The notes under the pieces are model-generated. The model did no database searches. It had not been told where the DNA came from and saw nothing but the letters and a program-made list of their open reading frames with translations. Both the position numbers and the translations under genes were made by a program. This document shows positions 44,863 to 64,000 of a stretch of DNA of 64,000 nt, piece by piece. Where the stretch lies: NCBI GenBank assembly GCA_044892525.1, contig CM097886.1:76570001-76634000 (forward strand), read 5' to 3'. The stretch is from Schmidtea polychroa. Taxonomy: Eukaryota. How positions within the stretch are numbered: position 1 is the first letter of the stretch; the number at the start of each line of letters is the position of its first letter.

Positions 44863-44894
44863 CATTCTTATTTACAGGCAACATCTCCCTTCGA

Positions 44895-46575: not shown

Positions 46576-47754
46576 TTATTGATCGGCGTAGCGGAATCCT
46601 TTGATTCGCTGCGCAATCCTCTGTCTGCACATCGGACATTCCTTTACTTTTCTACTACATGTGGCACATGCGATCAAATGTCCGCATGGCATATGAATAA
46701 CTTCTACACTCCTCTCCCAACACATAGTACATTTGATATCTCGTAAGATAGCTGTTTTGACCATTGATTCTTCTTTTATTTTTGTTTCAGGTTTTTCTCT
46801 ATACTGGGTTATCGCTCTGATCATATCGTACGTTGTTGTTGGTATATGTACATTTTTCTGTAGTTTCTCTCTAATCATGTTCTTTGCCCTTGTCGTGCCT
46901 ATTCCGGCTGCTTTCAACGCTCTGCACATGTTGGGTTTGTCTACCACTTCGTCAACCTCTTCCTCTGTTACTAGTACTTCCGGATATTCGGTTTCTTGTT
47001 CGTTGTGATATAGGCACCATGCTTGATGTCTAATTTCTGGTATGCCTTCTTCCGGTAATCTCTGTTGGCTTTCGCATCTTTCACACTTTAGTATTTGATT
47101 TTCTGTTAGGTAGAACCCTCTTATTGCTAATTCAGGTCCTCTCGTATCATCTCCGAACGTTTTCATTCTATTATCTGCTATTTGCGTGAGGAATTCCCCT
47201 TCACAAGTTGGAACATACTCATCAACGATTCTGGTTATCGCGATGCTCATTTTCCCTCCTTTTTCGTCTTCAGTTTTCAATTTCTCCAAGGCTTCGTATT
47301 TGATTTCCGGTTTGTTGTGTACATCAAATCCCAGTACGAATAGACAAGTTGGGAATCGTCTACGATGTTCCTCCTTTGGGTGTTCTCCTTTTTTCCATTC
47401 TGCTAATTTCCCTTTACAGAAACGACATGTTACTTGATCGGGTATCTCTGGTTTTCCGGAGAAGAAAAATCCGTCGCGTGCTAGCGCTCGGCTCTGTTCC
47501 TTGGTGAAAATGGTCTGATGTTCAAATGACAGATATCTCTGGTTCTCACATCTGAATTGTTCATTATCTCCCAGTTTCAAATTTTCGTGTACCCAATTAT
47601 AATCGTTTCCCATTCTCCGATAATATGCGTAACTACTTGGTTTTGTTTTGCTGACTTCCGCATCCTTCACTCTTTCTCTAGGTGACATATTGTCCTCTTC
47701 CTCTCTCATTGTGATCGTTTTCTTTCGGATATTCGGTCTCTCTTGATTAATCAT
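46576..47754 (-). CDS. Inhibitor of apoptosis protein (BIR + degenerate BIR + UBA-like + RING), intronless
   Basis: LARDGFFF...VTCRFC...W..GEHP.EEHRRRFPTCLFV; C-terminal RING CTMC...PCGHLIACATC....CPMCR. Confidence 0.92.
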   Translation of the reverse strand: MINQERPNIRKKTITMREEEDNMSPRERVKDAEVSKTKPSSYAYYRRMGNDYNWVHENLKLGDNEQFRCENQRYLSFEHQTIFTKEQSRALARDGFFFSGKPEIPDQVTCRFCKGKLAEWKKGEHPKEEHRRRFPTCLFVLGFDVHNKPEIKYEALEKLKTEDEKGGKMSIAITRIVDEYVPTCEGEFLTQIADNRMKTFGDDTRGPELAIRGFYLTENQILKCERCESQQRLPEEGIPEIRHQAWCLYHNEQETEYPEVLVTEEEVDEVVDKPNMCRALKAAGIGTTRAKNMIREKLQKNVHIPTTTYDMIRAITQYREKPETKIKEESMVKTAILRDIKCTMCWERSVEVIHMPCGHLIACATCSRKVKECPMCRQRIAQRIKGFRYADQ

Positions 47755-47894
47755 CTATAATAAATTTCATCATTTCTTTTTACATTTTCTTTTTCTAATT
47801 TTTATGGTTTTGGCAAGTTACTTTACTGTATACAATAACTTTATATTTACTTTACGTCGTTTTTACAAAATATTTACAGTTCCCTCCTATCCGT

Positions 47895-49319
47895 CTATCG
47901 TATTTCTATTGTTGGTCCTTCCTCATCTAGTTCGATTAGGAAGAATATAGTGTCCTTTTCTATGTAGGACCCTTCATTAAATTGGTATAGCTGCATAAAC
48001 TCTGCTACTCCTACCGCAGGATTAACCTCTGTAATCGGTTTATTCCCTGCTGGACTGGATGCTCGAAAACACATTATATGTGTCTTTTTTGCTCCTAAGA
48101 GAGATATTTTTAATCTATGTCGGAATGGCCATGCTATTAGGTCGTCAAAATCTCCTTTACAAATTTGCATATATATGGACATGCACCGATCTTTAAACTT
48201 TCCTTCACCATTTGGAAACCATCTCAATTTCATCTTGTATCCATGTTTCTTGGCGTAGAATGGTTTGCTCACTATCGTTGTCTGGATTCCTTGCTTTGCT
48301 TGCTCCATTATTTCCGTTATTCCTTGGATTTTCCACATGTATGGTAGTATTGGTAGTTCCTCTGTTGTCAGTTCCTTTGTAGTCCATTTGGTTTGTAATT
48401 TAGTTACTTCGACTAATTTGTCGTCTAATTTCAACATCCTTTGTGTTACGGCTTCTCTCGTATTTTCGAAGCTTTCCTGTGAGCTCAGCATTTCTTTTAT
48501 CATGATTTTATGTGATTTGAGTTCGTCTTTGACGTCTTCAATTGCTCTTGCTGTTAACTCTATTGCTCTCATCATCTTTTGCATGTGCTCGAATGTATTC
48601 TCCTCCACATGCTTCTTCATTTCTTCTGCTGGTAATTGTGCTCTACAGTCGAATGTCACCATTGGGCATTTTATTGCTTTTCTCGTGCATATCTCCCAAT
48701 GTTCATTTAATCTGACGTTGTTAATTTCTCCACACTCGTTTGGGCATTTCCCTGTATATTCGTCGCAAATCCGTCTTTCTACTGCGTTTCGATGTTCCAT
48801 TTCGATTTCTCTCCAATTAGCAGTTTCTCCGCAAAATTCGCATTTTTCCGTTCGCGCTTTGCATTCCCCTTTATGTTTGGTTTTCTCTTTTCGTAAAAAC
48901 TTTACCGTGCATGCTTCGCATTCCGATTCTAGATATTCGCATACGTCTGTATGGGCTCTTAACTCCTTTACTCGGCCTGTCCATTCGCATGACCTTTGGG
49001 TGCATCTTATTTTCACTTCTCTGATTTCTCGGTTCATTGCTCTATCCGGTATCGTACCAGTGGGGACCAACTTAAATGCTTCTCCACATCCTGGACAAGT
49101 TTCTCGTTTTAGTCTGGCTAATCTTATATCACACCCTCGGCACAATCTACACCCGCATCGAGTTTGACTTGCTCCAATTAATAATCTTCTACATGCTGTA
49201 TCGGCACATAATAATCTCTCTTCGAACTCGTCCGGCTCGGCTTGGTATTTTCTCATCAACTCATAGTTAATCTTTTGTTCCTCTGCTTCTCTCCGGTTTT
49301 CCTCTGCTTTGTTTTGCAT
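47895..49319 (-). CDS. TRAF-like protein (RING, TRAF zinc fingers, coiled coil, MATH), intronless
   Basis: CGCRLCRGC..TCPGC, DRAMNREI, CEWTG...H..VC, MATH YMWKI..SKPFY..GYKMKLRWFPNG..SIY..ICKGDFDDLIAWPF. Confidence 0.93.
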   Translation of the reverse strand: MQNKAEENRREAEEQKINYELMRKYQAEPDEFEERLLCADTACRRLLIGASQTRCGCRLCRGCDIRLARLKRETCPGCGEAFKLVPTGTIPDRAMNREIREVKIRCTQRSCEWTGRVKELRAHTDVCEYLESECEACTVKFLRKEKTKHKGECKARTEKCEFCGETANWREIEMEHRNAVERRICDEYTGKCPNECGEINNVRLNEHWEICTRKAIKCPMVTFDCRAQLPAEEMKKHVEENTFEHMQKMMRAIELTARAIEDVKDELKSHKIMIKEMLSSQESFENTREAVTQRMLKLDDKLVEVTKLQTKWTTKELTTEELPILPYMWKIQGITEIMEQAKQGIQTTIVSKPFYAKKHGYKMKLRWFPNGEGKFKDRCMSIYMQICKGDFDDLIAWPFRHRLKISLLGAKKTHIMCFRASSPAGNKPITEVNPAVGVAEFMQLYQFNEGSYIEKDTIFFLIELDEEGPTIEIR

Positions 49320-49408
49320 TCTACAATGATGATTTTTAATCTTGGGATTTCTACTTGATTATAACTCTATTTATTTACAGGATTATTTACATTTCACTCC
49401 TTTTTCTC

Positions 49409-49864
49409 CTACACATCTACCGTCGAGTCCGGTTCCCCTGTTCCTGGTAACCCGGTCATCCACTCGACTAAACTGGTAATATCATCATGTTGTCGATTTT
49501 CATGCAACCTTCTAATTTCTTCCGCTTGCCATCTGATTTGGCTTATTAACTGATTGTTATTATACTCTAGTTGCGCGATTATTTGGTGTTGTTCCTCTAT
49601 TTTTGTAATATATATTGCATTTCTATTAATACTCTCTATCAACGCCGTTTGGTTTCGTACCCAGTGCTCTTGAGTCTGATTTGTCAATTGGGTCATTAAT
49701 TCACACTGTACCCTCCACATGGATCCTGTTGGCTGACTCGGCTGGTTTGGCACGTTCATTTCCATCATGTCTACTGGATGTACATTCATAAGCGGCTGTT
49801 CTCTTACTTCAACAACATGTGGTATCCTATTTGGGTGTTCTTGCTCTTCGTTTCTCTGGTTCAT
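49409..49864 (-). CDS. 151-aa small coiled-coil accessory protein
   Basis: Intact ORF, Q/N/E-rich heptads; tattataaatag-ga-ATG. Confidence 0.6.
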   Translation of the reverse strand: MNQRNEEQEHPNRIPHVVEVREQPLMNVHPVDMMEMNVPNQPSQPTGSMWRVQCELMTQLTNQTQEHWVRNQTALIESINRNAIYITKIEEQHQIIAQLEYNNNQLISQIRWQAEEIRRLHENRQHDDITSLVEWMTGLPGTGEPDSTVDV

Positions 49865-50012
49865 TCCTATTTATAATACATGGTCATCATACTTGTTTTT
49901 GATTTTTCTACATATTGTTTTAATTTACTACTTTTATTTTGTACATACTACTACTATTATCACTACTTTTATTATTTCATTTATACATTATTTACAACAA
50001 CTCCTCCTCTCG

Positions 50013-51407
50013 TTATACCAGTGTCGCCATGGGGCCGGAATGCAGCGTGCGCATTCCCCCATATCTTTCGTCCGTTATTCGGTATATATCGACTTCGTGT
50101 GTCCATTCGTTCGGTGTGGGTATTCTTGGTAGTTCCGACATCCACAATCCGCTGGATCCGGGATCCTCTACCACCTCGTATTCTTCTAGATTCAGATTCT
50201 CTGTTGGAATACCGTATTCAAATTTTTCCACTTTGGGCCATTTTCTTTGGTTTCTCGGTTTTTGTTTACATCTTTTGGTGGTTCTTATCCACTGAATCAT
50301 TGCTAACGCTATTATCGTGCTTACTATCGCGCTAGTTATCCATATCATCTTTGTGATGATCGTTGTTCCATTATTTGTTTTTTCTGTCGTTAATATTGTA
50401 CTACCTGTGGTATTTGTTTCTGGTGCTTTGATTTTCTTGAATGCTTGATGTAATCGTTCCTTCTCTTTTTCTGTTAGGTGACTGTGATTTTCCCGTTTCT
50501 CTCCCCCTTCTTGATCTCGGGGTATCCACGGTATGTTTATTAATTGGGGTTTTTGTCGAGTTATTGGTTGACATACGCTGGTTCCTCTTCCTTTCTTAAG
50601 GATACATACTTGGTATCGTTCTTTCCGTTTCCCTGTCTCCATTTTAACGTCTGTACCTTTGTCTATCGGTGTTGTTGTACAGTCGATTATTCCCGTCTTA
50701 TCCATTACACATATCCTTATGATTGGTTCTCCTTCCTGGTTTTTGACTGTAATTACCTCTTCACCTTTCTTGTTGAGGTTAATAGTTATCTGCACTTCCC
50801 GTCTTTCGTCTTTAATTACTTCGTTAATCCATGTTGTTGTTGTTATTAATTCGGTTTGATTTTGCTCTGTTGTTGTTTTTGTACTAACTGATTTGTTTGG
50901 CTTCTTGGTTGTTATCCCCCTCAATGGATCTTGTTTCATTGCCATACTCTTTGGCTTGTCTTTTCTTGGTGCAGTTCTTGTTCCTTTACATACTACTATC
51001 CCTTGTGTTCCTGCGCATACCACAGTAGGGGTATTTGGTTTGACCTCTCCCCAGAAGAATTTGTGGTCTTGTGTCATATCAGTTATTATGCATATGTCTC
51101 TGTCTTCTCTGATGCATACATGTGTAATTGATCGACTCCCTTTATCTTCTATTTCGATACCTTCTTCCAAAATGTTGAGTTGAAAATGTACTCCGGTTTC
51201 GTTGGCTCTTTCTAGCTCCATTTCCTCTGTTGATATGTCTCTACAGATGTCATAATCTCCACATAGCCTGGGATCTCTTTTTTGGCTGCTAAAAATCTTT
51301 CCTTTTGTTATCGATCTGAAATCACAACTTACTCCTGTTCCTTCCATTAGTTGCACACATATTCCGACGGCATTTCCGTCGTAATCCTGACTTTTATCAT
51401 AAATACT
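50013..51407 (-). CDS. Type I membrane glycoprotein-like ORF overlapping the polyprotein end (-1 frame)
   Basis: Frame open from 51407; Cys-paired ectodomain, Thr-rich stalk, TM MIWITSAIVSTIIALAMIQWI, tail with Tyr motifs; no own signal peptide or upstream ATG. Confidence 0.75.
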   Translation of the reverse strand, partial: SIYDKSQDYDGNAVGICVQLMEGTGVSCDFRSITKGKIFSSQKRDPRLCGDYDICRDISTEEMELERANETGVHFQLNILEEGIEIEDKGSRSITHVCIREDRDICIITDMTQDHKFFWGEVKPNTPTVVCAGTQGIVVCKGTRTAPRKDKPKSMAMKQDPLRGITTKKPNKSVSTKTTTEQNQTELITTTTWINEVIKDERREVQITINLNKKGEEVITVKNQEGEPIIRICVMDKTGIIDCTTTPIDKGTDVKMETGKRKERYQVCILKKGRGTSVCQPITRQKPQLINIPWIPRDQEGGEKRENHSHLTEKEKERLHQAFKKIKAPETNTTGSTILTTEKTNNGTTIITKMIWITSAIVSTIIALAMIQWIRTTKRCKQKPRNQRKWPKVEKFEYGIPTENLNLEEYEVVEDPGSSGLWMSELPRIPTPNEWTHEVDIYRITDERYGGMRTLHSGPMATLV

Positions 51408-54400
51408 TCACCTTCTTGGGAAGCTTCTCTTACGATTCCCATATTTTTTGTTTCTGTTAAACAGATGGATGTTAATATTATAAATATTCTTTGTAGTAGG
51501 ATTGGCTGGATTTGATTTCGACACACTATGCTATGTAGTGGGGACTTTCGTTTTTTGTTCTCCGTTTTGTCGAATCCTTGATCTTCACCTCGACATTGGT
51601 CTTCTTCGTCTTCTTCCAATTCCTCATCATCACTCGTTGTTTCTCCGCCTTCCGGATTCTGTTCTCTGTCGTTTTCCTCTGGGTTGTTATCGTTATCCCC
51701 CATCCTTTCGTCGTCGTCGTCGTCGTCATTCCTCTCACCCGGGGTTTTCCTGAAAATGTCGTCCTCGACATTTGCTGCTTTGATCATCTCCTCGTATTTT
51801 TTAATTATCTCTTTTTTGTCGTTGTGGATACTTTCTCGTTCTTCTTTGGTTCCTTGATATTTCCGTTGTTTCCGGTGCCATTCCCACACTAGTATTTCTA
51901 GTTGCTTTTTCATCGCATGTGTTTTTGTGCATTCCCACCAATTACCTGTCAATTCTGTTCTATTTCTCTGTAATATTGCTTTAATGGTTTTTGGCATTGG
52001 TGGTCTTGAGTATATGGCGCTTCTTAGTACGATATTTTCGTTGTTTTGGAATTGATTTATATCAATTACTTCCGCTCTTAATTCGTTTTGTTTCCATTTG
52101 ATTAATATTGCTGCGGTTCTGTCTAAGTTTCCTCTGATGGCTTCCAGAATTGGTTCAATGCTCTGTCCCAACACCTCGGCTTCTTCGGTTGTTGCATTTC
52201 CTGTGATAAAGTTCACTATACTAGGTCTTTTTGACCTGACGGCATAACGTAATACGGTTCGTTGTTTGTTATCTTTTTCTTTCAGCGTGGATCCCGTTCT
52301 TAATAATTCTCTGAGTACATCTCTTGACGCGCCTATTGCTATGGCTTTCATCAGTGGAGTTTTTCCTTTACTGTTTTTGACGTTTGTTGATTGTTTGCAG
52401 TTTTCCATTATTCGTATAATCTCTAAAGCTCGTTTTTCTTGTCCTGCTTTCACTGCATGATGGATTGGCCAGTTATTACTCAAATCACTTGTTAGGAACA
52501 TGATTGGTAATCTCCGGATTAGTTCATATATTTGAGTCGGTATTTGTAATCCTTCGGCATATCTTCGTCCTTTCGCATATCTTTCTGCTACTAACATTAG
52601 TTTGCCCAATACTTGGTATTTATTGGTTATATCGGCCCATTCTGGTACAATTTCTCGTGCTATTTTTATTGTCATATTCCATGTTGCTTGGCTCCTTGCC
52701 ATTGCGTCAGCTTCGCTTTCTGCTTCAGTTCCTTTATGGGCGCTGCTGCTTGTTTCTCCTCTCAACATGAATATTCGTCTTGTCTGTGATCTAGTTAATC
52801 TACCGCTTACTTCTGGTTCCGTTGTGGCATTTGTTTGTGATCTCGTGATTATCCTTCTTGTTTCTGGGTCTTTAGTGGCAGTTTTCGCTACTGCTTTGCA
52901 TCGACATGTATTCACATAAATGGGTCTAATTAGTGGATTGTTAACCAACTTCACTCTAGCGTTGTTCTCGTTTACATAGATGATTTCATATGGCCCTCTG
53001 CCATTACGTTGTAATTTCTTTGCTGTTCCTGGGATTAATTCGGGTGTTTCTATAATAACCCAATCTCCGATTTTAAATTGATGGTTTTGCACGTTCTTCT
53101 TTTTATCATGTAATTCCTTATAACTCTCTTGGTTGAATCGGATGTTCATCCCTGCGGTTTTCCATATTTCTTGCATTCTCTCCTTGAACTTTGTCACATA
53201 ATCATCTATCTCCATATATTGTGAGATTGGCGGTTGGTATTCGAGATCCATCGGCATGTTGCATTCCCTTCCATACATGAGTTTAAACGGACTCATTTTC
53301 GTTGCTGAGTGTATTGACATTCGATAAGCCATTAGACACAACTTAATATATTCATCCCAGTCCTTTTGATGTTTACTCACGTAATTGGACATCATGTCTA
53401 TTAGTATGCCGTTAAATCTTTCTGTCTGACCATTCGTTTGCGGGTGGTATGGTGAGGTTCTCAATTTGGCAATTCTAAAATAATTTGTCACTTCATTTAT
53501 TATCTCGCTCATGAAATTAGTTCCTTGGTCAGTTAAGATTTGTTTTGGTGTTCCATATCTGCAGCAGATCTCTTCCACTAATATCCTTGCAACCGTTCGT
53601 GCTTTCTGGTCTGGCATCGCAAATGCTTCAGGGAACTTAGTCAGATAATCAGTTATTACCAATATATACACATTTCCACTGTTAGTCTCTGGTAGTGGTC
53701 CAACTACATCCATTGCAATCATTGTCATCGGTTCTGGCGGTATCGGCATTGGTTTCAATGGTGGCTTTAGTTTACTGCCCGTTGTTTTTCTGGTTGCGCA
53801 TATCAGGCAGTTCTTTATCCATTCTTTCACGTCATCGCTCATATTTGGCCAGTAATATTTCTGTTTGAGCCTTGCTTCTGTTTTCTTGGCTGACATATGT
53901 CCGCCCAATTTACCATCGTGGTATTGAATCATAATTTCTTTCCGTCTACTTTCTGGTAGACACATCAATCGTTTGTCGCCATCCATTACCAATAGCCATC
54001 CTTTCTCGATCGTATATCTGTGACGATTTTTCTCCATGTGTTCTTTTAGTCGATCATCGTTGTTGAATATTTTCATATCGTTTTTTTCCAGGAACTCAAT
54101 TATTAGTTTTAATTCATTGTCTTCCTTTTGTTCGTTCTTTAGATTGGTAAAATCGATATCTTCCGCGATTATCAGGCATATTCGTCTGACGTCATGATCC
54201 ATGAGTTCTTCAAATACAAATCTCGACATGCAGTCTGCATTTGCGTTTGCTTTTCCTGACTTGAATTTGATGTATGGGGAATATTCTTGTAACTGCATTG
54301 CCCATCTCATCAATCGACTAGATGCCTCTTTATGTTGGCCCAACCAAACTAGAGGTTGATGGTCCGTAGTAATAATTATCTCGTGTCCCCATAATAAATA

Positions 54401-57400
54401 TTTGAAATGTTTTATCGCCTGAATTATTGCTAAGGCTTCTCTTTCTGTGACCGAGTAATTCTTCTCGTGTTTTTTGAACGTCTTGCTATAATATCCGATG
54501 ACTCTTTCTCTTTTCTCCTCATCCCATTGTCCTAGCACAGCTCCTGATGCGTATCCACTTGCATCAGTTGCTAATAAAAAAGGCTTTTTGAAATCTGGGT
54601 GGATTAAGATAGGCGAGGCTATTAGTTTATCTCTGAGCGATTCGAAAGCTATTTGCTGTTCCCTTTCCCACAGAAATGGAGTATCTTTTTTTGTTAGTTC
54701 TTGAATTGGTTTTGCGATAGTTGCATAATTTTTGATAAACTTGCGGTAGTATCCGCATAATCCCAGAAATTCTTGTACCTGAGTCACGGTTTTTGGTATC
54801 GGACAATTCTTTATTTTCTCAACGTTTCTCGGATCTGGTTCTTTTCCTTTTGCCGACACAATGTGTCCTAAAAATGTGACTCTCTCCTTTGCCCAGTCGC
54901 ATTTTGACGGTTTCAATTTCAGCTTCCATTGTTTCAGTCTTATGAATACGTTTCTGATGTCGATTAAGTGTTGCTCGAAAGTACCTGAATAAATTAACAG
55001 ATCATCGATATACACCATACATTGTTTGATCCCGTGTGTCACAAAGTTCATACATCTCTGAAACGAAGCAGGTGCGTTTGTTAATCCAAATGGCATCTTT
55101 TTAAACTGATATAAATCTTTTCCGATGGTAAAGGCTGTCTTTTCTCTATCTTCCTCTTTAACTTTAATTTGCCAGTATCCACTCTTTAGATCTAAAGATG
55201 TAAAGTATGCTGCTCCATGTAACATCTGTAACATTTCGTTAATATCTGGCAGTGGGTATGTATCCCTTTTTGTTACTGCATTCAACCTCCGATAATCGAT
55301 ACAAAATCTCTGTGTGCCATCTTTCTTTTTGACCATTACTACTGGAAATTGCCAGGGTGAACAGCTAGGTTCGATCACTCCGGCATCTAACATCTTTTGT
55401 ACCTCCTCCTCTGCTACCGTTTTCTGTGCTTCGGCTAATCGATATGGTCTCAAAGTTATGGGTGTCTCATCCGTTAATGGTATAATGTGTTGCGTTACAT
55501 CGCTGGTACCCAAATCCAAATCTGAAGCCGCAAAAATATCTTTAAACTCAATCAGTAGCTGTCTGAGTTGTTCCTTTTCGTCTTCATTTAGGAGTTCGCT
55601 ATCGATGGTCCATAATTCTTTTTCGTCTGCTCCCTCGCTTTTGATCTCCGGCAGCTCAATGTTCATCATTGGTGTGAGTTTTCCAAGTCTCTCGTTTTCG
55701 TAGATTACTTTATCTTCCTCATCAAAATTGGTGATGTTGATGGGTATCTCGTTATCCTCATTTATACTGACAATTTCTCTTGCCAATGGCAGCTCCCTTC
55801 TCTTCTCGAATTTTTGACTTGGTTCAAATATCATATCTCCTTTGGCTTCGTTATCGACCTTGACATAACATATTGTCTGGGTACGTGCTGGTATTATCAT
55901 TTTTTCGGAGCATCTCACTTCTGTTCTCATTGTGCATATCTGTCCAGTTTTATCTTTTAATTTCATGGAACTTAAATCAATCACAATTTCTTTCAATAAT
56001 TCCGGCATTACATCTGTTCCAATTATACATGATACGCTTAGCTGTCTAATGACTGCGAGGTACGTTGTAACTTTAACCCCTTTGTATTCGATCGTTGACC
56101 ATACTCTTCCTACTACCGCTATGGATTGTTTGCTGCATGTTATTACATCCATGGTTGTCTCCTCAATGCATGGCCATAGTCTTCCTGGTAGCATATTCAT
56201 ATTTATTGCTGAGATATTTGCTCCGGTATCAATCATTGCATCCATCTCTATTCCGTTTACTTCGACCGTGATAGTTAACGATGGTCCTGCTGGTGTCTGC
56301 AATACCGCAATCGTTCGTGTCTCCACCTCTTGCCCCACATTTTTAACTGGCTTGATCATTGTTGGGTCCATTGCTGCCCAATTTGGTTCATACGCCGTTG
56401 GGTAAATATTTGGTACGGGTAATCTCCCGGTTCCCATTCTTATCCGTTCTCTCATTGTCCCTGGTCGTCGCATTGGCCCATTGGTTGGTGCCTGTAAATA
56501 TGGTGATCCCCATGGTTTCCTTTTTTCGTTTTCCCAAGTGTCTGTATTTTTGTTTATCAACATTACTCCTCCTTGATTATTATCGTCATCGTCGAAATCA
56601 TCATTGTCATCACTATCATCGTCTCGTCTGAGATTCATCCACTTTTTCCACTTCCCGGTTCTTTTCGCTTTCTCTTGAGTTCTTTCCGCTTCCAATCTCA
56701 TTATCACTTTGAACTTACGTCCGACTTCTTCATCTGTCCCTTTCATTTGCGTTAATATTTTCAACAATCTTTTTATTCGATGAATATCCTTTGAGTGTCC
56801 ATGCAACACCATTGTTTTCGCTAGGAACGGTAAGAATCCAATTGCAAGTTTCCAATTTACTTTTCTCTCGCGCTTATAGATGTCAAAACATGCTAGCATC
56901 TGAGTTAGTATCACTCTAACTATTTGTATTATCAGAATTATTCCGAGTATCCCTGCCATCATTTGGCCAAATACCAAAAATCTACCCCACATAGCCTTCA
57001 TCATGTTTGCTGTTGCTTGTTGGTAGTGACTTGGTGATAATAATAGCTCGTAGTTCGGGCTCTCCCCATAATTATTTCCTCCAGAAATAGTCACTATATT
57101 TGATAAGATTGCTTGTCTTTGCGCTGGGAATAACAGGTGGGCTCTTGCTGATTCGAGATCTTTTGGTGTATATAATCCACTCTGGGATACGTCTATCGGC
57201 TTGAACTCTAGTTCTGTTGTTAGTTCCGTCAATCCAAATTTCTTGGGCGTTACTACGATTGTTTTACTTGGGAATTGAACCCATTGTCCATCTTCTTTTT
57301 CATACATTGGTCCATATGCATTACTACAATTAAACAGATTTGGTTGAAACCCTACCGGGTTCATTACCCTAGTGACTGCTTGCACAAACCTGGGTTTACC

Positions 57401-60400
57401 TTCGTGGATAATTTCGAGTTCGTTTGCACACTTATCTCTTGGTATTGTAGGGTTTTCTGGCAATCTTGCCATTATCTTTTTGCATTGGTAGGTGTACATC
57501 ACTTCGCCCACGATTCGTCCGAAATATCCTTCCTGTAATGGTAGTAACGGAATTGCGTTATCTGGATTTGTAATCGCCATTGCTAATTTGGTTCTCAGTA
57601 TTTCTTTGTTGAGCAGGCAATCGTTTCTTAACAGATCATGGTAGACTTTTTCCGTGGATGTTAATCCTCTGTGATATAAGAAATCCATCTTATTATTAGC
57701 GTATAAATATAGTTTGACATCCTTTTCGCTTAGTCTTCCGACTGCATTTGCTAGGGTTCTCCGCGACAAGTAGATCCCTTTATAATTGGTGCTGATCACC
57801 ATCTCATCGCATTTACTCACCATTTTGTTCTTTATGAACCTCATTCCTATTCCATCGTCTTTGGAGATTATCGCTGTGGGTGTTACTTCCGATTCCAATT
57901 TCGATGTTATTACGTCTTCTCTGAATCCTTTCCTTGCTCTCAACTCTTCCATCGCTCGTTTTTCTGCTTCTCCTTTTGGTTCACTGTATACTTTCCCTTG
58001 GATTTCTTCGAATATTGCTGTTTTGAGCAACATTAGTCGACATACCTTCTGATCCGCATGGTATACCAGAGTTGACATTCCGGTTGAACATGATCGATCT
58101 GATGCGAGACAACTTGGGTATTTCTTCATTGCTTGCGTGTCAGGGTCGAAATAACCTTGATACCTTTCTAATTTAGCTTCGTAGCTTTCTATCACGACCA
58201 CTCCACTAACCAGTTGTCCGTTCAAGGTGTACGTTCCTGTCTCACATGTTCCGTCTCCTTTAGTGATTCTGCCTGCCGTATACACACGAGTCGTTTTTAT
58301 TTTTCCTGGTTCTGCAGCAATTTCAATCCCTTGCCTTAAGTGGATTCTCCCCGATCGGAATCCTTCCTCGCATTCCTCTCTTGATAGTAATATTACTGTC
58401 GATTCCAATCCCGGTTCTATGATTGTTGAGTGAGAGGATGAACCGCAGTGATGTGCAAATATCTTTCTGGTTACCGTACATTCTTGGACCATAGTTTTGA
58501 TGAAATCTGCTTCTTGATATACGTTGTACGAGACTGATGCCATGACTGTTTGTAATTTTCTTGGGTTTGCCGCTTTACAGTCTTCCGTATCCTTTAATGA
58601 ATATTTCTCATGGATTTTTATGTTGTCGCAGTCGTATACTGCAAATGACTCCGTTCCTTTGATACACATCATCCATATCAATATCGTGGTTATTATGGCA
58701 TTCATTCCCTTTCGACTTGCTCTTGGGTCGTTTATATTGATTGTTCCTTCGAATTCAGTTAGCAAATCGCGTAACTTTGCTTGCATCATTTCCGTTTGAT
58801 CTTTCTTCCCAGTTGATTCGATGAAGCTTCTCCATCCCCCTTGTTCAAGTATATATGGTTCTATTGATCGTTTAATTATTTCTGTTACTGTGAATTCGTA
58901 ACCCGTTGCGTTATATTTTGGCATTCGTTTTTTATATTGGCCGATAACGTTATATACTAAATATGCTAATCCCACTAAAAATCGATTTTGGTCCTCTGAT
59001 CTGCTTAATAGATGTTCCACAATTAATCTGAGTTCCACGGGATCTTTTAACGTTAATCGAATTTTATTATCCATGATTTTCATTATTATCGGTTTCAATA
59101 CTGCCCATAATTGTTTGGCTTCGGTCGGAATATTATCCTTCCTCATGACTCTTTTCACTTCTGGATTTGCTAATGCTAACATGTTGGCTAATAGGTCATT
59201 TATCCATCGTGTCCCTTGTTCTCGGACGCTTGTCTTCACTTTCACTTGTTTTACTAATGCACTTAGTTTATCCATTTTAGTTTTTACCTGCTCCATTTGC
59301 GCCTGAACTTTGGATTTTGGTTCGATCTCTGCTTTATCTGTTTTTGGTCTTCCTCTTGTTCGTCGATCCATAGCTGTTCCGGTTTCTTTCCGTTTTGGCG
59401 GATTGTAAGTTGTATCTTTTGACGTGGTCGCTCCTGGATCTACTCTCCAGTTGCTCCATTCATCGGTTGTGGTTACATCTTTATTGGCATCTCTTTCCAC
59501 GTTATCTAAATCCGTCTCGGCTTCCGTCGTTTCCACTGGTTGTCTCTGCGCGCATACAAATCCATCTAAATCATCAGTTGTCAGTTCACCTTCGTCGATA
59601 AATAGATCTCCTGATTGCGATGCTCTCATAATCTCGCCTGCTTCTACTATCTCTTGTAATTCATCCAGTATTTCGTCTTCTCCCGTTGTTTCGATCGTCA
59701 CTTCACTAACCGCATTTGGAACTTCTGGTGTGTCCAAACTTCCTGGTTGTTGGGTGGATGATTTTTGCTTTATCTCTCTTCTCCTTAGCTCTCTACCTGC
59801 AATTTTACTCACCGTTAATCTGTTCACAATTTCTCCTTGGAGTGGTGTCACACCGATCTCAATATCGTCGTCTAATGATCGTCCCTCGTGTTGTAAGTGG
59901 AATGGGAGTTCATAAGGTATTCTCTTTTTAACTTCTCTGACTTTAGCTGTCGTATAGAATTCCTTTTCCATTGGTTCAAAATCTGGCATGAATATTTTTA
60001 ATTGATATTTCTCAGGTGAGTTTTCGGCCCACTCTTGTTGTTTCCATTTCCGGATGATTTCACCAAATTGTTCAGGGTACCATACGTATACCCGTCGATA
60101 TTCTTCAATCGCTTTAACGATCTTTCGTAGATTTTGAATCCTTTTGCATGATTCGGCTATCCATTTTGCTAGTTCTACCACCGCTCGTCGACGATTTTTC
60201 GCCCCGTTTTGTAATATCTCCATCAACTCCTTACATTTTTGTGCTTCCAACAATGTTGCTGCTTCTTCCTCATCTGCGTCGGCGTCTATTGGTAGATGTC
60301 CTGAATCAGACACTCTTCTCCTCATCATACAGATTCTCGGTTGATTTTCTGGTATGTTCAGTCGTTGGTTCATTTCTTGTTCTGTTTCAACTTCTACTCT

Positions 60401-63400
60401 GATCTGGATAGCATTGTTTTTCACAAATTTTGACTGCTCATTCTCAATGTAACTTAGACGTATTAATTTAGGTGTCCCAGAAGCGATATTTTCTGATGTT
60501 GTTGGTCGTTGATAGCAGGCGCTCCTTGGATCTGGTTTCAATGTTTCTTTATGCATGTTAAGGCTATCTTTCAATGGTTCGATTGCTATCGTCACTTTTC
60601 TGCTAAACGGCCATGGTACCTTGTCGTCATAATTTCCTTTGCAGATGACGAAGAATGCCGACACATAATTTCCTTTACCTATCCCGTCTCCGTTCGGGTA
60701 TATTCGCAATTTCATCTTGTACTCACCTAATCCTGAGTAGAACGGTGGACTTACTAATCGTGTGATTTTCTCTTCCTTTGCTGATTTTATCTTTTCCATC
60801 CAATTCTCAATTTTCCACGTGAATGGTGCTAACCTTACTGGTTCTCGTATCTCCTCATCTTCTCCTGATGGTAATTCATTTTGGAATTCTTGTGGTAATA
60901 TATCCTGGTAAGTATCGATCGGTTTCTCTCTTACCCATACTGCTGCGATCTCTTCGGGTATATTATCTATCCAATTTGGTTCCAACTTTTGCTGCTCCCA
61001 ATCCCATCGAGCTTCACTTTCGATCCACACTTTTTTCCATGGTATCAGTTTGCAATCTTCGTCATTGAAGGCTGCTAGTTTTAGTTTATCATCCTTTAGC
61101 CAATGGTTATAAATATCTATTATTCGATCCATCTTTGCCCTCATTCCCCATTGGAATCTTTTAATTTGTTGCTCGGTTTTCGTGGCGTTTTTGTGCCCAC
61201 CAGATGGTTCATCCATCGCGATTATATTGATGACGGCTCCATCTTCCCAGATTCCTAGTTCGTAAATTACAGTTCGGTCTCCTCTTTCTAGCATGTGCCG
61301 GTTGTACATTATTATCACATCTTCGATCATTCCATCCTCACTATTTTCTCGAGCTTTTTGGATGATCTCTTGATCTATGATTTGCACTAACTCGTCAACT
61401 TGGCAATCGGGATTAACTTCTATTATTTGTTTCTCTTCATTTGGCAACTTCACCTTTATTTTTATCGTTTCATGCTCGCATTTGGTTCTCTCGTATTCTC
61501 CGTATTTAGATATCAATTCTGTCGCTCGTTTGTCTTCGAATCTCATAATTTCCGTGTCTCGTACGTCTTTAACAAATTGTTTCATTAGTTGTGGCCATCT
61601 TTCTCTCAATCTATTAATGTATTTCCTTGTCTGATCGATAGCTTGTTTGACTAAAATTATTTGGTTTTCTTTCATTATTTTTCGTTCGATCTTTTCCAAT
61701 TCTGGTTCTACTTCATTGTTAAACACTTGTTGGATTTTCTTGAACATCTCTGCTACCGAGTCGTCATCCCTGGTTTTCTCTAAGGTTAAGATGTTAGTTT
61801 CGTTTGGCCATATCATCGCATCTACCAAATGTATGCCTATTTTAACTTTGTAACCATCGACATATAATTGTTTATTTTTATGGCTCGTTCCCATTTTTTC
61901 CTGTACCCAGTTGTACAGTTCATCGGTATTTGTTCCTTTTAATTCGATAGTCTGTATCTGAATCTCGGGGTGTTGAATGCTTACTTGATATTGATCTGGG
62001 CCTGCTTCCTTTAGTTTCTCTTTATATTTTGTTGCTAAATCTTTCCATGCTGCCGTTATTATACCTCCTTCACACTGGTATACTTGAGTTATAAATTTTA
62101 AGCATTTTCTGTATGTTAACTCGTTGATGTAGCTCTCATTTCGCTCTATTTCTGTTACTGTGTCGAGAATTTCCTCGAATATCTCTTCTTCATCTTTTTC
62201 TATCATTGATTTCATGTCATCATTTTCACTCTCCTCACTACTTTGAGGTGTTTCACTGTTTGGAGGTGTTTTTGGTTCGTTATTTTCCTCACTTGACTGA
62301 AATAATTCGCCTCCCAGGCTACTCACCTCACTTTTCTCATCTTCCTGATCCGTCTGATCGCTCCGCATTTGTCTCAGCATGTTTATTTTAGCTTTGGTAT
62401 GTGGTTCCTTCTTTTCAAACCACTCATTTTTCCTGAACCAATGCTCTTTCACTTTTTCTTTTATTTGTTCCTCAGTTAATGTAGGATTTTCGTTTTTGAT
62501 TCTGTCCTCGATTTTTTGTAGTAGTACCCTCTGAATTCGATTTTTTGTAACTATCTCATTGCTTTTTGGTTCGTCTTTACTCTCATCTCTCTTTTGTCTC
62601 CTTTCTTTCTCCTCTTTGGTAAATTCTTTAATCAATTGTATTTTCTCTTCACTGCTCAATTCTGTTCGTGGATCGATCTCATTTTCTTTTGTCGTTTTTA
62701 TCTCCTTGTTTATTATCGGTTCACTCCCGTCGTTGTTAACACACTGCTCCGCAGTGTGCGATTCCTCTTTATTTGTTAATCTCATCATATTTATTCTTCC
62801 GGGATTCGCTTCCCGTTGTTTCCATCTTTCTTGAATTTCTCTGGCTTCCTCGTTTTGTAATCTTTGCCATTCGACTCGTTGCTGATCTTGTTGTTGCTTA
62901 CTTGGTTGGTTCCGGATTTCCTCGGTGCTCTGCATCATGTTGATTCGTTGTTGTTGGTTATTAGTCGGTATTCGCAGGATCATATCTTTTAATTGTTCGA
63001 TTTCCTGCATGAGGTTGATTTGTGTGTTCTGAACTGGATTGTTTGATCCTGGTTGATTTGGTTTGGTTCTCATCGTGCATTCTCTTGCCATGTGTCCAGG
63101 CTGATTACAATTGTAGCAGGTTCTGGTTCCTCCTCTGCTCATAGACATCATGGGTCCTCTGCAGACATTTTCCGTGTGGCCTCTTCTCCCACACTTTTGA
63201 CACATCCTTGCTTTATAACATTCATTGCTCCAATGCCCTGGTCGTTGGCATATGTTGCACGTTCGATTGTTGATGTCGTTGTTCCTGAAATTATTAGTAA
63301 AATTTTGAATATTACCTCCATTGTTTTGGTTTCTTGTTTGTGGAGTTTTGAACAACTGTTGCGATCCTGGGATGAATTGATTCATTACTGGATTTGCATT

Positions 63401-64000
63401 ATTGACTTGGTTGTTTGTGGTTGTTGCTGTTGCCGCTGGAGCTGCTGGAGCTGCTGTCATTGCTGCTACTTGTATTGGTGTTAAGTAGGTTTCACATTTG
63501 TTAGCGATTTTTAGTGCTTCTTCCAGCGTCTCTGGTGCTCGGCATCCCAAAGTTGCTCGTATATCCTCCCGTTTCATGCCATCTACGAATACGGCTATTA
63601 TTTTGTCTTCCGGAACTGGTTGATTTGAATCGAAGGCTTCTCGTGCTAGTCGTCTCAATTCGCATGCGTACAGTGCGTTGGATTCGTTATATTTCTGCTT
63701 TCGATGCAGAAAGTCTAACATTTTTCGATTTCCCTCTTTTTCGGTACCGAATGTTTTTATTAAAAATTCCTTGATCTCTTTCCACGTTCTCAACTTAGTT
63801 GCATCACATTTCGCCTCCAAGTATACATCTTGGGCGCTTCCCTTTAGATATAGGGGTATTCGTTCTCGTACGACTATGTCTGGCCAGTGACATATCGTAA
63901 TGTATACTTCGAATTCCTTTATAAACGTTTCCAGCTGGTTTATATTTCCATCGAATGGCTCTCCTCGAAATTTCTCTCTGAATTCTCCAATGTTGACGTG
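51347..64000 (-). CDS. Giant Gag-Env-Pol polyprotein (>4217 aa, 5' end beyond the window)
   Basis: The 4157-aa ORF stays open for 60 more codons to the window end (HVNIGEFREKFRGEPFDGNINQLETFIKEFE...IPLYLKGSAQDVY, capsid-like). Confidence 0.97.
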   Translation of the reverse strand, partial: HVNIGEFREKFRGEPFDGNINQLETFIKEFEVYITICHWPDIVVRERIPLYLKGSAQDVYLEAKCDATKLRTWKEIKEFLIKTFGTEKEGNRKMLDFLHRKQKYNESNALYACELRRLAREAFDSNQPVPEDKIIAVFVDGMKREDIRATLGCRAPETLEEALKIANKCETYLTPIQVAAMTAAPAAPAATATTTNNQVNNANPVMNQFIPGSQQLFKTPQTRNQNNGGNIQNFTNNFRNNDINNRTCNICQRPGHWSNECYKARMCQKCGRRGHTENVCRGPMMSMSRGGTRTCYNCNQPGHMARECTMRTKPNQPGSNNPVQNTQINLMQEIEQLKDMILRIPTNNQQQRINMMQSTEEIRNQPSKQQQDQQRVEWQRLQNEEAREIQERWKQREANPGRINMMRLTNKEESHTAEQCVNNDGSEPIINKEIKTTKENEIDPRTELSSEEKIQLIKEFTKEEKERRQKRDESKDEPKSNEIVTKNRIQRVLLQKIEDRIKNENPTLTEEQIKEKVKEHWFRKNEWFEKKEPHTKAKINMLRQMRSDQTDQEDEKSEVSSLGGELFQSSEENNEPKTPPNSETPQSSEESENDDMKSMIEKDEEEIFEEILDTVTEIERNESYINELTYRKCLKFITQVYQCEGGIITAAWKDLATKYKEKLKEAGPDQYQVSIQHPEIQIQTIELKGTNTDELYNWVQEKMGTSHKNKQLYVDGYKVKIGIHLVDAMIWPNETNILTLEKTRDDDSVAEMFKKIQQVFNNEVEPELEKIERKIMKENQIILVKQAIDQTRKYINRLRERWPQLMKQFVKDVRDTEIMRFEDKRATELISKYGEYERTKCEHETIKIKVKLPNEEKQIIEVNPDCQVDELVQIIDQEIIQKARENSEDGMIEDVIIMYNRHMLERGDRTVIYELGIWEDGAVINIIAMDEPSGGHKNATKTEQQIKRFQWGMRAKMDRIIDIYNHWLKDDKLKLAAFNDEDCKLIPWKKVWIESEARWDWEQQKLEPNWIDNIPEEIAAVWVREKPIDTYQDILPQEFQNELPSGEDEEIREPVRLAPFTWKIENWMEKIKSAKEEKITRLVSPPFYSGLGEYKMKLRIYPNGDGIGKGNYVSAFFVICKGNYDDKVPWPFSRKVTIAIEPLKDSLNMHKETLKPDPRSACYQRPTTSENIASGTPKLIRLSYIENEQSKFVKNNAIQIRVEVETEQEMNQRLNIPENQPRICMMRRRVSDSGHLPIDADADEEEAATLLEAQKCKELMEILQNGAKNRRRAVVELAKWIAESCKRIQNLRKIVKAIEEYRRVYVWYPEQFGEIIRKWKQQEWAENSPEKYQLKIFMPDFEPMEKEFYTTAKVREVKKRIPYELPFHLQHEGRSLDDDIEIGVTPLQGEIVNRLTVSKIAGRELRRREIKQKSSTQQPGSLDTPEVPNAVSEVTIETTGEDEILDELQEIVEAGEIMRASQSGDLFIDEGELTTDDLDGFVCAQRQPVETTEAETDLDNVERDANKDVTTTDEWSNWRVDPGATTSKDTTYNPPKRKETGTAMDRRTRGRPKTDKAEIEPKSKVQAQMEQVKTKMDKLSALVKQVKVKTSVREQGTRWINDLLANMLALANPEVKRVMRKDNIPTEAKQLWAVLKPIIMKIMDNKIRLTLKDPVELRLIVEHLLSRSEDQNRFLVGLAYLVYNVIGQYKKRMPKYNATGYEFTVTEIIKRSIEPYILEQGGWRSFIESTGKKDQTEMMQAKLRDLLTEFEGTININDPRASRKGMNAIITTILIWMMCIKGTESFAVYDCDNIKIHEKYSLKDTEDCKAANPRKLQTVMASVSYNVYQEADFIKTMVQECTVTRKIFAHHCGSSSHSTIIEPGLESTVILLSREECEEGFRSGRIHLRQGIEIAAEPGKIKTTRVYTAGRITKGDGTCETGTYTLNGQLVSGVVVIESYEAKLERYQGYFDPDTQAMKKYPSCLASDRSCSTGMSTLVYHADQKVCRLMLLKTAIFEEIQGKVYSEPKGEAEKRAMEELRARKGFREDVITSKLESEVTPTAIISKDDGIGMRFIKNKMVSKCDEMVISTNYKGIYLSRRTLANAVGRLSEKDVKLYLYANNKMDFLYHRGLTSTEKVYHDLLRNDCLLNKEILRTKLAMAITNPDNAIPLLPLQEGYFGRIVGEVMYTYQCKKIMARLPENPTIPRDKCANELEIIHEGKPRFVQAVTRVMNPVGFQPNLFNCSNAYGPMYEKEDGQWVQFPSKTIVVTPKKFGLTELTTELEFKPIDVSQSGLYTPKDLESARAHLLFPAQRQAILSNIVTISGGNNYGESPNYELLLSPSHYQQATANMMKAMWGRFLVFGQMMAGILGIILIIQIVRVILTQMLACFDIYKRERKVNWKLAIGFLPFLAKTMVLHGHSKDIHRIKRLLKILTQMKGTDEEVGRKFKVIMRLEAERTQEKAKRTGKWKKWMNLRRDDDSDDNDDFDDDDNNQGGVMLINKNTDTWENEKRKPWGSPYLQAPTNGPMRRPGTMRERIRMGTGRLPVPNIYPTAYEPNWAAMDPTMIKPVKNVGQEVETRTIAVLQTPAGPSLTITVEVNGIEMDAMIDTGANISAINMNMLPGRLWPCIEETTMDVITCSKQSIAVVGRVWSTIEYKGVKVTTYLAVIRQLSVSCIIGTDVMPELLKEIVIDLSSMKLKDKTGQICTMRTEVRCSEKMIIPARTQTICYVKVDNEAKGDMIFEPSQKFEKRRELPLAREIVSINEDNEIPINITNFDEEDKVIYENERLGKLTPMMNIELPEIKSEGADEKELWTIDSELLNEDEKEQLRQLLIEFKDIFAASDLDLGTSDVTQHIIPLTDETPITLRPYRLAEAQKTVAEEEVQKMLDAGVIEPSCSPWQFPVVMVKKKDGTQRFCIDYRRLNAVTKRDTYPLPDINEMLQMLHGAAYFTSLDLKSGYWQIKVKEEDREKTAFTIGKDLYQFKKMPFGLTNAPASFQRCMNFVTHGIKQCMVYIDDLLIYSGTFEQHLIDIRNVFIRLKQWKLKLKPSKCDWAKERVTFLGHIVSAKGKEPDPRNVEKIKNCPIPKTVTQVQEFLGLCGYYRKFIKNYATIAKPIQELTKKDTPFLWEREQQIAFESLRDKLIASPILIHPDFKKPFLLATDASGYASGAVLGQWDEEKRERVIGYYSKTFKKHEKNYSVTEREALAIIQAIKHFKYLLWGHEIIITTDHQPLVWLGQHKEASSRLMRWAMQLQEYSPYIKFKSGKANANADCMSRFVFEELMDHDVRRICLIIAEDIDFTNLKNEQKEDNELKLIIEFLEKNDMKIFNNDDRLKEHMEKNRHRYTIEKGWLLVMDGDKRLMCLPESRRKEIMIQYHDGKLGGHMSAKKTEARLKQKYYWPNMSDDVKEWIKNCLICATRKTTGSKLKPPLKPMPIPPEPMTMIAMDVVGPLPETNSGNVYILVITDYLTKFPEAFAMPDQKARTVARILVEEICCRYGTPKQILTDQGTNFMSEIINEVTNYFRIAKLRTSPYHPQTNGQTERFNGILIDMMSNYVSKHQKDWDEYIKLCLMAYRMSIHSATKMSPFKLMYGRECNMPMDLEYQPPISQYMEIDDYVTKFKERMQEIWKTAGMNIRFNQESYKELHDKKKNVQNHQFKIGDWVIIETPELIPGTAKKLQRNGRGPYEIIYVNENNARVKLVNNPLIRPIYVNTCRCKAVAKTATKDPETRRIITRSQTNATTEPEVSGRLTRSQTRRIFMLRGETSSSAHKGTEAESEADAMARSQATWNMTIKIAREIVPEWADITNKYQVLGKLMLVAERYAKGRRYAEGLQIPTQIYELIRRLPIMFLTSDLSNNWPIHHAVKAGQEKRALEIIRIMENCKQSTNVKNSKGKTPLMKAIAIGASRDVLRELLRTGSTLKEKDNKQRTVLRYAVRSKRPSIVNFITGNATTEEAEVLGQSIEPILEAIRGNLDRTAAILIKWKQNELRAEVIDINQFQNNENIVLRSAIYSRPPMPKTIKAILQRNRTELTGNWWECTKTHAMKKQLEILVWEWHRKQRKYQGTKEERESIHNDKKEIIKKYEEMIKAANVEDDIFRKTPGERNDDDDDDERMGDNDNNPEENDREQNPEGGETTSDDEELEEDEEDQCRGEDQGFDKTENKKRKSPLHSIVCRNQIQPILLQRIFIILTSICLTETKNMGIVREASQEGEVFMIKVRITTEMPSEYVCN
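52090..52480 (-). other. Ankyrin repeats (polyprotein domain after integrase)
   Basis: WPIHHAVKAG, NSKGKTPLMKAI, KDNKQRTVLRYAV, EPILEAI. Confidence 0.85.
52900..53930 (-). other. pol: Integrase domain
   Basis: HHCC (H.GKLGGH...CLIC), IAMDVVGPLP, LTDQGTNF, YHPQTNGQTERFN. Confidence 0.97.
54220..55480 (-). other. pol: Reverse transcriptase and RNase H domains
   Basis: RFCIDYRRLN, LDLKSGYWQ, MPFGLTNAPASFQR, YIDD (55001-55012); RNase H TDASG, EREALAI, TDHQPL, NANADCMSR. Confidence 0.98.
55950..56300 (-). other. pol: Aspartic protease domain
   Basis: AMIDTGANIS (Asp at 56228-56230), CIIGTDVM. Confidence 0.95.
56780..58705 (-). other. env: Envelope glycoprotein, chuvirus/Monjiviricetes class III fusion-like, in frame between Gag and PR
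   Basis: Signal MNAIITTILIWMMCIKGTES, then FAVYDC..YSL.D..C, HCGSSSH, C.LNKEIL..KLAMA..NPD, GEVMYTYQC, TRVM..C..GPMY..W, SGLY..DL..LLFP; TM at ~56890-56990. Confidence 0.85.
58814..59225 (-). other. Bcl-2-like domain in the polyprotein
   Basis: BH2-like IEPYILEQGGWRSFIES (58814-58864), BH1-like HLLSRSEDQNRFLVGLAYL, upstream amphipathic helices. Confidence 0.65.
59795..60007 (-). other. Ubiquitin-like domain 3
   Basis: YQLKIF...KVREVKKRI..FHLQHEGRSLDDD. Confidence 0.5.
60385..60826 (-). other. TRAF-type MATH domain in the polyprotein
   Basis: FTWKIENW, SPPFYS..GEYKMKLRIYPNGDG..GNYVSAFFVICKGNYDDKVPWPF. Confidence 0.93.
61220..61468 (-). other. Ubiquitin-like domain 2
   Basis: IKIKVKLPNEEKQIIEVNPDCQVDELVQ...IMYNRHMLE..RTVIYELGIWEDGAVINII. 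Confidence 0.65.
61781..61990 (-). other. Ubiquitin-like domain 1
   Basis: QEKMGTSHKNKQLYVDGYKVKIGIHLVDAMIWPNETNILTL parallels ubiquitin [39 protein letters not shown]. Confidence 0.55.
63075..64000 (-). other. gag: Gag capsid and three CX2CX4HX4C zinc knuckles
   Basis: LHRKQKYNES...Y...LRRLA capsid motif; CNICQRPGHWSNEC, CQKCGRRGHTENVC, CYNCNQPGHMAREC. Confidence 0.95.

Follow-up and report, generated by a model that had tools for sequence, protein, structure and literature searches.

Recurring hexamers along the giant polyprotein of a Burro-like planarian retroelement as probable sites of its own aspartic protease

The giant gypsy-like long terminal repeat (LTR) retrotransposons of planarians termed Burro/GYPSM1 encode a single open reading frame (ORF) of ~4,900-5,100 aa whose Gag carries 2-3 CCHC knuckles, possess an LTR pair and exceed 30 kb in total; the passages of their description drawn upon here give no processing map (PMC6431247). 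None for Burro-like polyproteins was found in the literature searched, a search that left supplements and most subscription papers outside its scope. BURRO1 levels rise under smedwi-2 RNAi (PMC8532177). Errantiviruses of GAG-ENV-POL layout with a gB-type Env, described from Platyhelminthes, Nematoda and Bryozoa, are Ty3/gypsy elements in which Env likewise separates Gag from Pol, but the relevant passages mention only furin cleavage of Env, do not name Burro and offer no element-protease map (PMC13524379). The processing of polyproteins by the protease of an LTR element, and the type of site at which it cuts, are textbook knowledge. The sequenced Ty1 sites, for example (VPTIN↓NVHTS, IHLIA↓AVKAV and TARAH↓NVSTS, the arrow marking the cut), have mainly V/I at P2 and P2' (PMC6952103), and foamy virus sites have been described as resembling those of yeast retrotransposons (PMC3185560). 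Statements on cited work here and below rest on those passages of each source that bear on the comparison. Here, we analyse a giant polyprotein encoded in a 64,000-nt stretch of Schmidtea polychroa DNA (assembly GCA_044892525.1, CM097886.1, positions 76,570,001-76,634,000; hereafter the window, to which all coordinates refer), along which a family of hexamers recurs that probably constitutes the recognition sites of the element's own aspartic protease.

Judged by its encoded domains, the element is a Burro-like Ty3/gypsy retroelement. In common with Burro/GYPSM1, a huge single ORF carries a Gag with CCHC knuckles (three here) together with MATH, ubiquitin-like and ankyrin domains, Env lies in frame between Gag and the protease (PR), the order PR-dUTPase-reverse transcriptase (RT)-RNase H (RH)-integrase (IN) is kept, BIR and TRAF genes reside within the element and the host DNA is AT-rich; unlike there, BIR and TRAF form separate downstream ORFs in the window element (PMC6431247). 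In Burro1 the ubiquitin-like domain is located between MATH and BCL-2, whereas here a weak ubiquitin-like match precedes MATH, and for this reason we use the label "Burro-like" rather than Burro1 (PMC6431247). Compared with Burro, the ORF is truncated at 4,217 aa by the window edge, and a second ORF, of 464 aa and in a different frame, overlaps its end. No LTR pair was found among repeats within the window, and the 5' end of the element and its LTRs lie outside it. Before Env, a putative BCL2-like region contains a 26-residue stretch with weak matches to Bcl-xL chains (E ~0.8-1.8, PDB sequence search); the region has no Pfam match, and a protein atlas search with aa 1590-1740 returned nothing.

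An original prediction, made from the sequence alone, had listed eight peptides of the form [RK]I[NCF][MLT][ML][RQ] along this polyprotein as marks of its domain borders and as protease sites that release each cargo domain as a separate mature protein. The features concerned, from the N-terminus of the polyprotein to its C-terminus, are the following.

51347..64000, minus strand: giant polyprotein ORF of 4,217 aa, open at the window 5' edge, in the order Gag-cargo-Env-PR-dUTPase-like-RT-RH-IN-ankyrin
63455..63472, minus strand: candidate site QVAAMT (aa 177-182) at the capsid/nucleocapsid (CA/NC) border, predicted cut A↓A; not in the original list
63074..63262, minus strand: three CCHC zinc knuckles (nucleocapsid), from sequence and PF00098
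63005..63022, minus strand: site QINLMQ (aa 327-332), C-terminal to the last knuckle, predicted cut N↓L
62930..62947, minus strand: site RINMMQ (aa 352-357), predicted cut N↓M
62780..62797, minus strand: site RINMMR (aa 402-407), within a strongly polar linker (flank hydropathy in the 2nd percentile), predicted cut N404↓M405
62372..62389, minus strand: site KINMLR (aa 538-543), predicted cut N↓M
61205..61474, minus strand: ubiquitin-like domain (~aa 843-932), a weak match (OTU1_UBXL, E 0.019), with a ubiquitin domain in relative P0012
60389..60823, minus strand: MATH domain (aa 1060-1204), PF22486, E 4.7e-29
60320..60337, minus strand: site RICMMR (aa 1222-1227), 18 aa downstream of MATH, predicted cut C↓M
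56801..58708, minus strand: Env, a Monjiviricetes-type fusion glycoprotein, in frame (PF24664, E 1e-67), with no motif inside
56297..56314, minus strand: candidate site TIAVLQ (aa 2563-2568) at the protease N-terminus, predicted cut A↓V; not in the original list
55934..56305, minus strand: predicted mature aspartic protease (aa 2566-2689), with intact DTG and a Ddi1/retroviral protease fold
55925..55942, minus strand: site QICTMR (aa 2687-2692) at the protease/dUTPase-like border, predicted cut C↓T, the least secure of the eight
55667..55924, minus strand: dUTPase-like domain, seen in the predicted fold of aa 2551-2820 behind the Ddi1-like protease
54215..55603, minus strand: reverse transcriptase and RNase H (Pfam)
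54167..54184, minus strand: site RICLII (aa 3273-3278) in the RNase H/integrase linker, predicted cut C↓L
52769..54175, minus strand: predicted mature integrase (aa 3276-3744), from Pfam and alignment with Ty3
52760..52777, minus strand: site RIFMLR (aa 3742-3747), between integrase and ankyrin cargo, predicted cut F↓M
52202..52465, minus strand: ankyrin repeats, the C-terminal cargo (PF12796)

All eight peptides are present once each, in frame and at the coordinates originally given, in the minus-strand ORF (64000..51347), with starts at aa 328, 352, 402, 538, 1222, 2688, 3273 and 3742 when INLMQ and ICTMR are counted as 5-mers. Five match the expression as it was written; of the other three, INLMQ and ICTMR follow a Q, and the last two residues of RICLII are II. 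The expression, which was chosen post hoc, finds these five where shuffled sequences average 0.006-0.012 (0/1000 shuffles under each of three schemes), and a slightly wider one, likewise fitted to its matches, finds exactly the eight (0.04 expected; 0/1000 shuffles). Because of this fitting, all 4-6-mer patterns over fixed residue classes were also enumerated across the whole ORF against local shuffles, a procedure that includes the look-elsewhere effect; its top pattern, [RKH]I.M[LM]R, comprises the sites at aa 402, 538, 1222 and 3742, and its score was reached by 0/178 shuffles. In leave-one-out profiles, which inherit the selection made in the original prediction, the eight sites rank 1, 1, 1, 1, 1, 1, 3 and 2 among 4,205 positions. 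Since the copies differ in synonymous codons and no repeat of at least 40 nt joins them, their likeness resides at the protein level; their flanks are unrelated. Seven downstream ORFs of the same element (2,641 aa) served as controls, and the sole score there to come near the sites is that of RICVMD (7.1), in the ORF overlapping the polyprotein end. The hexamer family is thus real and recurs more than chance allows.

A Pfam scan of the polyprotein finds zinc knuckles, MATH, the fusion glycoprotein, the aspartic protease (aa 2577-2665), RT, RNase H, integrase and ankyrin repeats, and all eight sites fall outside these domains, none of them within the Env ectodomain. Five do mark domain borders, lying after the last zinc knuckle, after MATH, between PR and the dUTPase-like domain, between RH and IN, and after IN, whereas those at aa 352, 402 and 538 have no defined domain on either side; an AlphaFold model of aa 311-1340 with one relative (mean pLDDT 34.6) was not used for borders. 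In the predicted fold of aa 2551-2820, QICTMR closes the protease fold and is followed by a four-residue linker before the dUTPase fold. The cognate aspartic protease is part of the same polyprotein, with D2591-T-G intact.

Read in the same way as the Ty1 sites, the hexamers would be cut in the register P3 [R/K/Q], P2 Ile, P1 [Asn/Cys/Phe] ↓ P1' [Met/Leu/Thr], P2' [Met/Leu/Ile], P3' [Arg/Gln/Ile], and would represent a Met-rich variant, specific to this lineage, of the Ty1/Ty3 site type. P2 is Ile in 8/8 sites of the original list, with Val and Ile in the two added candidates, and P2' is hydrophobic in 8/8 (Met 5, Leu 2, Ile 1; mainly Val/Ile in Ty1). The Ty1 sites share the beta-branched P2, the small or polar P1, the hydrophobic P2' and the polar P3 and P3', such that TIN↓NV parallels RIN↓MM; in contrast, the copia element Ty1 has three sites, with V/I at P2', against eight to ten sites here, with Met-rich P1' and P2' and basic P3 and P3' (PMC6952103). 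Ty3 is similarly cut at CA/NC, around PR and at RT/IN (PDB 4OL8 and 7Q5B alignments), but it is additionally cut at the RT N-terminus, which is motif-free here, and carries no cargo, Env or post-integrase site (PMC6525542, PMC4974528). The last residue of the Ty3 RT construct 4OL8 is Gag-Pol 1011, within AVY↓TI; this sequence fits V-x↓x-I and, on alignment, falls in the linker that holds RICLII, ~12 residues ahead of that hexamer. Two of the eight peptides had been said to coincide with known Gypsy junctions, a statement that is correct at the level of linkers: RICLII lies in the Ty3-RT-end linker at an offset of ~12 residues, and ICTMR is at the end of the protease fold but is retained, in loose form, in one of ten windows of distant relatives.

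A structural model of the protease dimer with aa 387-421 provides a further line of evidence. The complex scored 0.62 against 0.14 for the best of three controls, passing a mark reached by 51/78 solved pairs and 2/108 mismatched ones in a calibration that did not extend to peptides; runs agreed in at least 85% of contacts and the partner pLDDT was at least 55. I403 and M406 are placed symmetrically at the two catalytic loops, which positions the N404↓M405 bond at the catalytic centre. The motif is the sole hydrophobic stretch of the modelled peptide.

Conservation was assessed in distant and close relatives. Among 69 matched proteins, 14 Burro-like ones (36-45% identity in Pol) were examined and 11 used for counts in anchored junction windows; the 58 left out were mostly non-clade or concatenated gypsy models, with P0016 and P0021 as near duplicates and P0042 as distant; TRAF/MATH matches from a separate search were set aside as well. 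Because the strict motif is absent from 14/14 of these proteins, their support is for a loose four-residue pattern, [VI]-x-x-[VILM], which was written after the relatives' junctions had been seen. This pattern occurs in 7/10 pre-PR windows (1.9 expected), 9/11 RH/IN windows (3.7 expected) and 9/11 post-IN windows (4.1 expected), P0020 having ICMMQ at the last of these. In the best 10 of 55 further matches, six of which lack a post-IN window, it occurs in 7/9 RH/IN windows (2.5 expected) and 3/4 post-IN windows (1.05 expected), and in 1/2 each of the pre-PR and post-PR windows. Among close relatives (44-64% identity), the aa 327 site is kept in 8/8 that reach it, with like motifs there in distant relatives as judged by eye; the aa 352 site appears as QQRIN in 7/14, whose sequences become unreliable after it; and the aa 177 candidate keeps the form Q[VI]-small-small-[LM] in 13/14 Gag relatives. 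P0072 has HINMLR at the aa 538 site, 5/6 identical beside 0/15 just upstream and 7/15 downstream, and RISVLE at the aa 1222 site, only 2/6 identical with the pattern kept; one alignment, in which the three Gag-only relatives were misplaced, was used solely for its comparison with P0072. At the aa 2687 site, P0070 (65% identical) has RICMLK, a closer match to the family than QICTMR itself, and no relative examined covers the aa 402 site. As separate observations on these relatives, P0010, P0011, P0013, P0014, P0017, P0019 and P0020 contain two to three aspartic-protease-like domains with D-[ST]-G, which lie in the interval separating Env from the main protease and behind integrase, and P0221, a clade member with 48% identity over integrase, is labelled a Turicibacter metagenome-assembled genome (MAG) protein and probably represents eukaryotic retroelement DNA in a bacterial bin.

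Several observations weigh against reading the hexamers as protease sites. Besides the lack of the strict motif in distant relatives, even the loose pattern is found there in just 1/10 post-PR windows (1.2 expected) and 0/5 CA/NC windows (0.7 expected), and within the ORF it is by itself barely enriched (33 vs ~24.5; 46-58 of 1000 shuffles). A Gibbs search of 46 junction windows from the 11 relatives beat 17/17 nulls but returned a mixed motif, which ranked the eight sites 103-1333 of 4,212. Most of the close relatives belong to a single family, and their gene models are fragmentary and in part chimeric. In the enumeration, the best shuffle nearly tied the top pattern (8.884 vs 8.889), and BLOSUM 6-mer clustering, dominated by tryptophan, did not single out the motif. 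Look-alikes occur at doubtful places for a cut: RECTMR, whose Cys is a zinc ligand, scores 8.0, and the 464-aa ORF contributes RICVMD. P2' is mostly Met rather than the V/I of Ty1; the aa 3742 site has Phe at P1 and fails a generic site pattern; the dUTPase/RT junction is motif-free though cut in Ty3; and the pass of the complex model may come from likeness to solved protease-peptide complexes.

Nevertheless, because the hexamers recur, resemble Ty1/Ty3 sites, are conserved in relatives and are accommodated by the dimer model, they are probably recognition sites of the element's own homodimeric aspartic protease, dividing the polyprotein together with two weaker sites. Statistics, position, conservation, likeness and the register model thus lend good support to their original designation as protease sites, with cleavage, register, products and topology as predictions. 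The ten candidates would split the cytoplasmic parts of the polyprotein. On the Gag side, capsid would be followed by a nucleocapsid of 150 aa and by three short spacers of 25, 50 and 136 aa; next would come a 684-aa product carrying the ubiquitin-like and MATH domains together, a motif-free 1,341-aa stretch holding Env, a protease of 124 aa, a dUTPase-RT-RH product of 586 aa unless a further, unrecognised site exists, an integrase of 469 aa, and an ankyrin tail of 473 aa or more. Masses of ~17, 16, 80, 13.5, 68 and 55 kDa are predicted for products of this map. In membrane-protein biogenesis, signal peptidase would free the N-terminus of an in-frame Env. Here, Env has a signal-peptide-like start at ~aa 1765-1785 (read by eye from sequence and relatives) and a transmembrane helix at aa 2349-2365 (hydropathy), and its N-terminus is probably made by host signal peptidase; such a release would leave the protease and Pol starting as the cytoplasmic tail of Env, from which they would be freed by the cut at aa 2565. 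All ten candidates lie on the predicted cytoplasmic side, as expected, an agreement that with eight sites is not significant on its own.

The protease/dUTPase border invites the most serious alternative, that QICTMR is merely the structural end of the protease dimer sheet and remains uncut, leaving PR-dUTPase-RT fused as in foamy viruses. The model sets I2688 in a beta-bridge four residues ahead of the dUTPase fold, the post-PR windows of distant relatives are nearly devoid of the pattern and the dUTPase/RT junction has none. In foamy virus Pol, which is cut only at RH/IN, PR and RT stay joined, so that the lack of a PR/RT cut has a precedent, but this Pol is made apart from Gag, cut once and not part of a giant cargo polyprotein (PMC6669543). 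On the other side, QICTMR holds leave-one-out rank 1 of 4,205 positions, and its counterpart in P0070 is closer to the family. Moreover, the C-terminal strand of retroviral proteases belongs to the dimer sheet and directly abuts a cut site. We consider the fused arrangement unlikely, if the strongest of the competing explanations.

Less probable again is the full claim of the original prediction, that these sites free each cargo domain singly. Sites do stand on both sides of the ubiquitin-like and MATH block and before the ankyrin tail, but profile scans find no scoring site that would separate the ubiquitin-like domain from MATH, nor one in aa 1225-2565 (a helical domain, the Bcl-2-like region and Env), nor a motif in the disordered dUTPase/RT linker at aa 2779-2800, where the Ty3 RT start maps (~aa 2787). 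Release in separate mature proteins was therefore too strong a statement, one that also passed over two sites; since these borders carry no motif, cargo would be released in blocks. Single release would need more divergent sites of the kind seen at aa 177 and 2563. These two likely sites, whose omission leaves the motif map incomplete, rank low on the eight-site profile (QVAAMT 117, TIAVLQ 53), so that motif scanning cannot exclude others. The predicted IA↓VL cut in TIAVLQ would place the catalytic D2591 at position 26, compared with D25 in HIV-1 protease. Other candidates were dropped: aa 1753 and 1764 (before Env), 2478 and 2777-2779 for low profile rank and no conservation, INIIAM (aa 924) because it reads as the final strand of the ubiquitin-like domain, RECTMR (aa 306) for its zinc-ligand Cys, and a di-glycine behind the ubiquitin-like domain, considered as a deubiquitinase site, because P0072 lacks it.

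It is more doubtful still that only the canonical junctions (after NC, at the PR ends, RH/IN and after IN) are cut, with the copies at aa 352, 402, 538 and 1222 being decayed duplications or helix-start or binding motifs. No domain is defined around aa 352-538, a low-confidence fold (pLDDT 35) puts aa 327, 352 and 538 in or at helix starts, relatives leave aa 402 uncovered, and distant relatives carry, by eye, one or two post-NC motifs instead of four. Against this, the extra copies are the best family matches (leave-one-out rank 1), their flanks share no common repeat, aa 538 is 5/6 identical in P0072 next to the 0/15 stretch, and aa 402 models in the protease active site. Finally, chance likeness picked post hoc, in whose favour stand the expression fitted to its matches, the near tie of the best of 178 shuffles and the failure of BLOSUM clustering, is extremely improbable and largely refuted by the 0/178 result after look-elsewhere correction, by four further sites uncounted in that pattern, and by five independent domain borders together with conservation in relatives.

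If the hexamers are protease sites, a broader and more tentative view, to which we assign rather less than even chances, is that the site acts as a portable expansion joint for captured host domains, the Met-rich specificity serving to release timed anti-host effectors upon protease activation. Across the clade, the site behind integrase persists irrespective of what comes next, be it ankyrins as in the window element, a second protease-like domain as in P0010, P0011, P0013, P0019 and P0020, or signal-peptide-like membrane proteins as in P0012, P0024 and P0032. The released blocks would be related to ubiquitin and apoptosis (ubiquitin-like plus MATH, and the ankyrin tail). In P0012, ankyrin repeats lie between Env and protease, a placement that differs from their position after integrase in the window element and suggests that cargo moves between slots bounded by protease sites.

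The remaining features of the window concern mainly the region downstream of the polyprotein.

42909..51407, minus strand: downstream ORFs of the same element (464 aa, 153 aa, TRAF-like, BIR/RING and three coiled-coil-like), used above as controls
49989-49996, 49384-49391, 49372-49379, 47871-47878, 44869-44876, 43935-43942 and 43924-43931, minus strand: copies of TGTAAATA

The 464-aa ORF (50013-51407, minus strand), which holds RICVMD, overlaps the polyprotein end by ~60 nt in a different frame. The polyprotein has a terminal hydrophobic segment (aa 4166-4182), and the 464-aa ORF encodes strands rich in Cys, a stretch rich in Thr and, at its C-terminus, a hydrophobic helix; together they resemble one membrane protein split by a frame change. 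In addition to the MATH domain of the polyprotein, separate TRAF-like (zinc fingers plus MATH) and IAP-like (BIR plus RING) ORFs lie at 46576-49358 (minus strand). The motif TGTAAATA occurs within ~40 nt of the stop codon in 5/7 downstream ORF spacers examined, often behind a GA-rich stretch, and the BIR/RING spacer has near-matches to it; across the window, TGTAHATA is not enriched (20 vs 13.9). In sequence, the motif is similar to a Pumilio element or to a forkhead site, and it may indicate where transcripts of the accessory genes end or start. In the spacer behind the 533-aa ORF, the motif is immediately followed by a run of ~42 A (44821-44862, minus strand) that resembles a poly(A) remnant. 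Elsewhere in the window, at 30902-33866, a MULE-type transposase ORF (32386-33495, plus strand) lies between 14-nt tandem repeats that form inverted arms.

Because the mechanism is textbook, the finding is only moderately surprising; what appears to be new is the use of an unusually tight, element-specific consensus at cargo junctions and, apparently, the four consecutive sites behind the nucleocapsid and a clade-wide post-integrase site regardless of the cargo that follows. Few known retroelement proteins are as large as the Burro-like polyproteins, for which the predicted map supplies exact peptide substrates, product sizes and N-termini. It also indicates which cargo to study jointly, with the ubiquitin-like and MATH domains as one predicted product, and suggests how an in-frame Env could coexist with Gag and Pol, namely through signal peptidase combined with a cut at the protease N-terminus.

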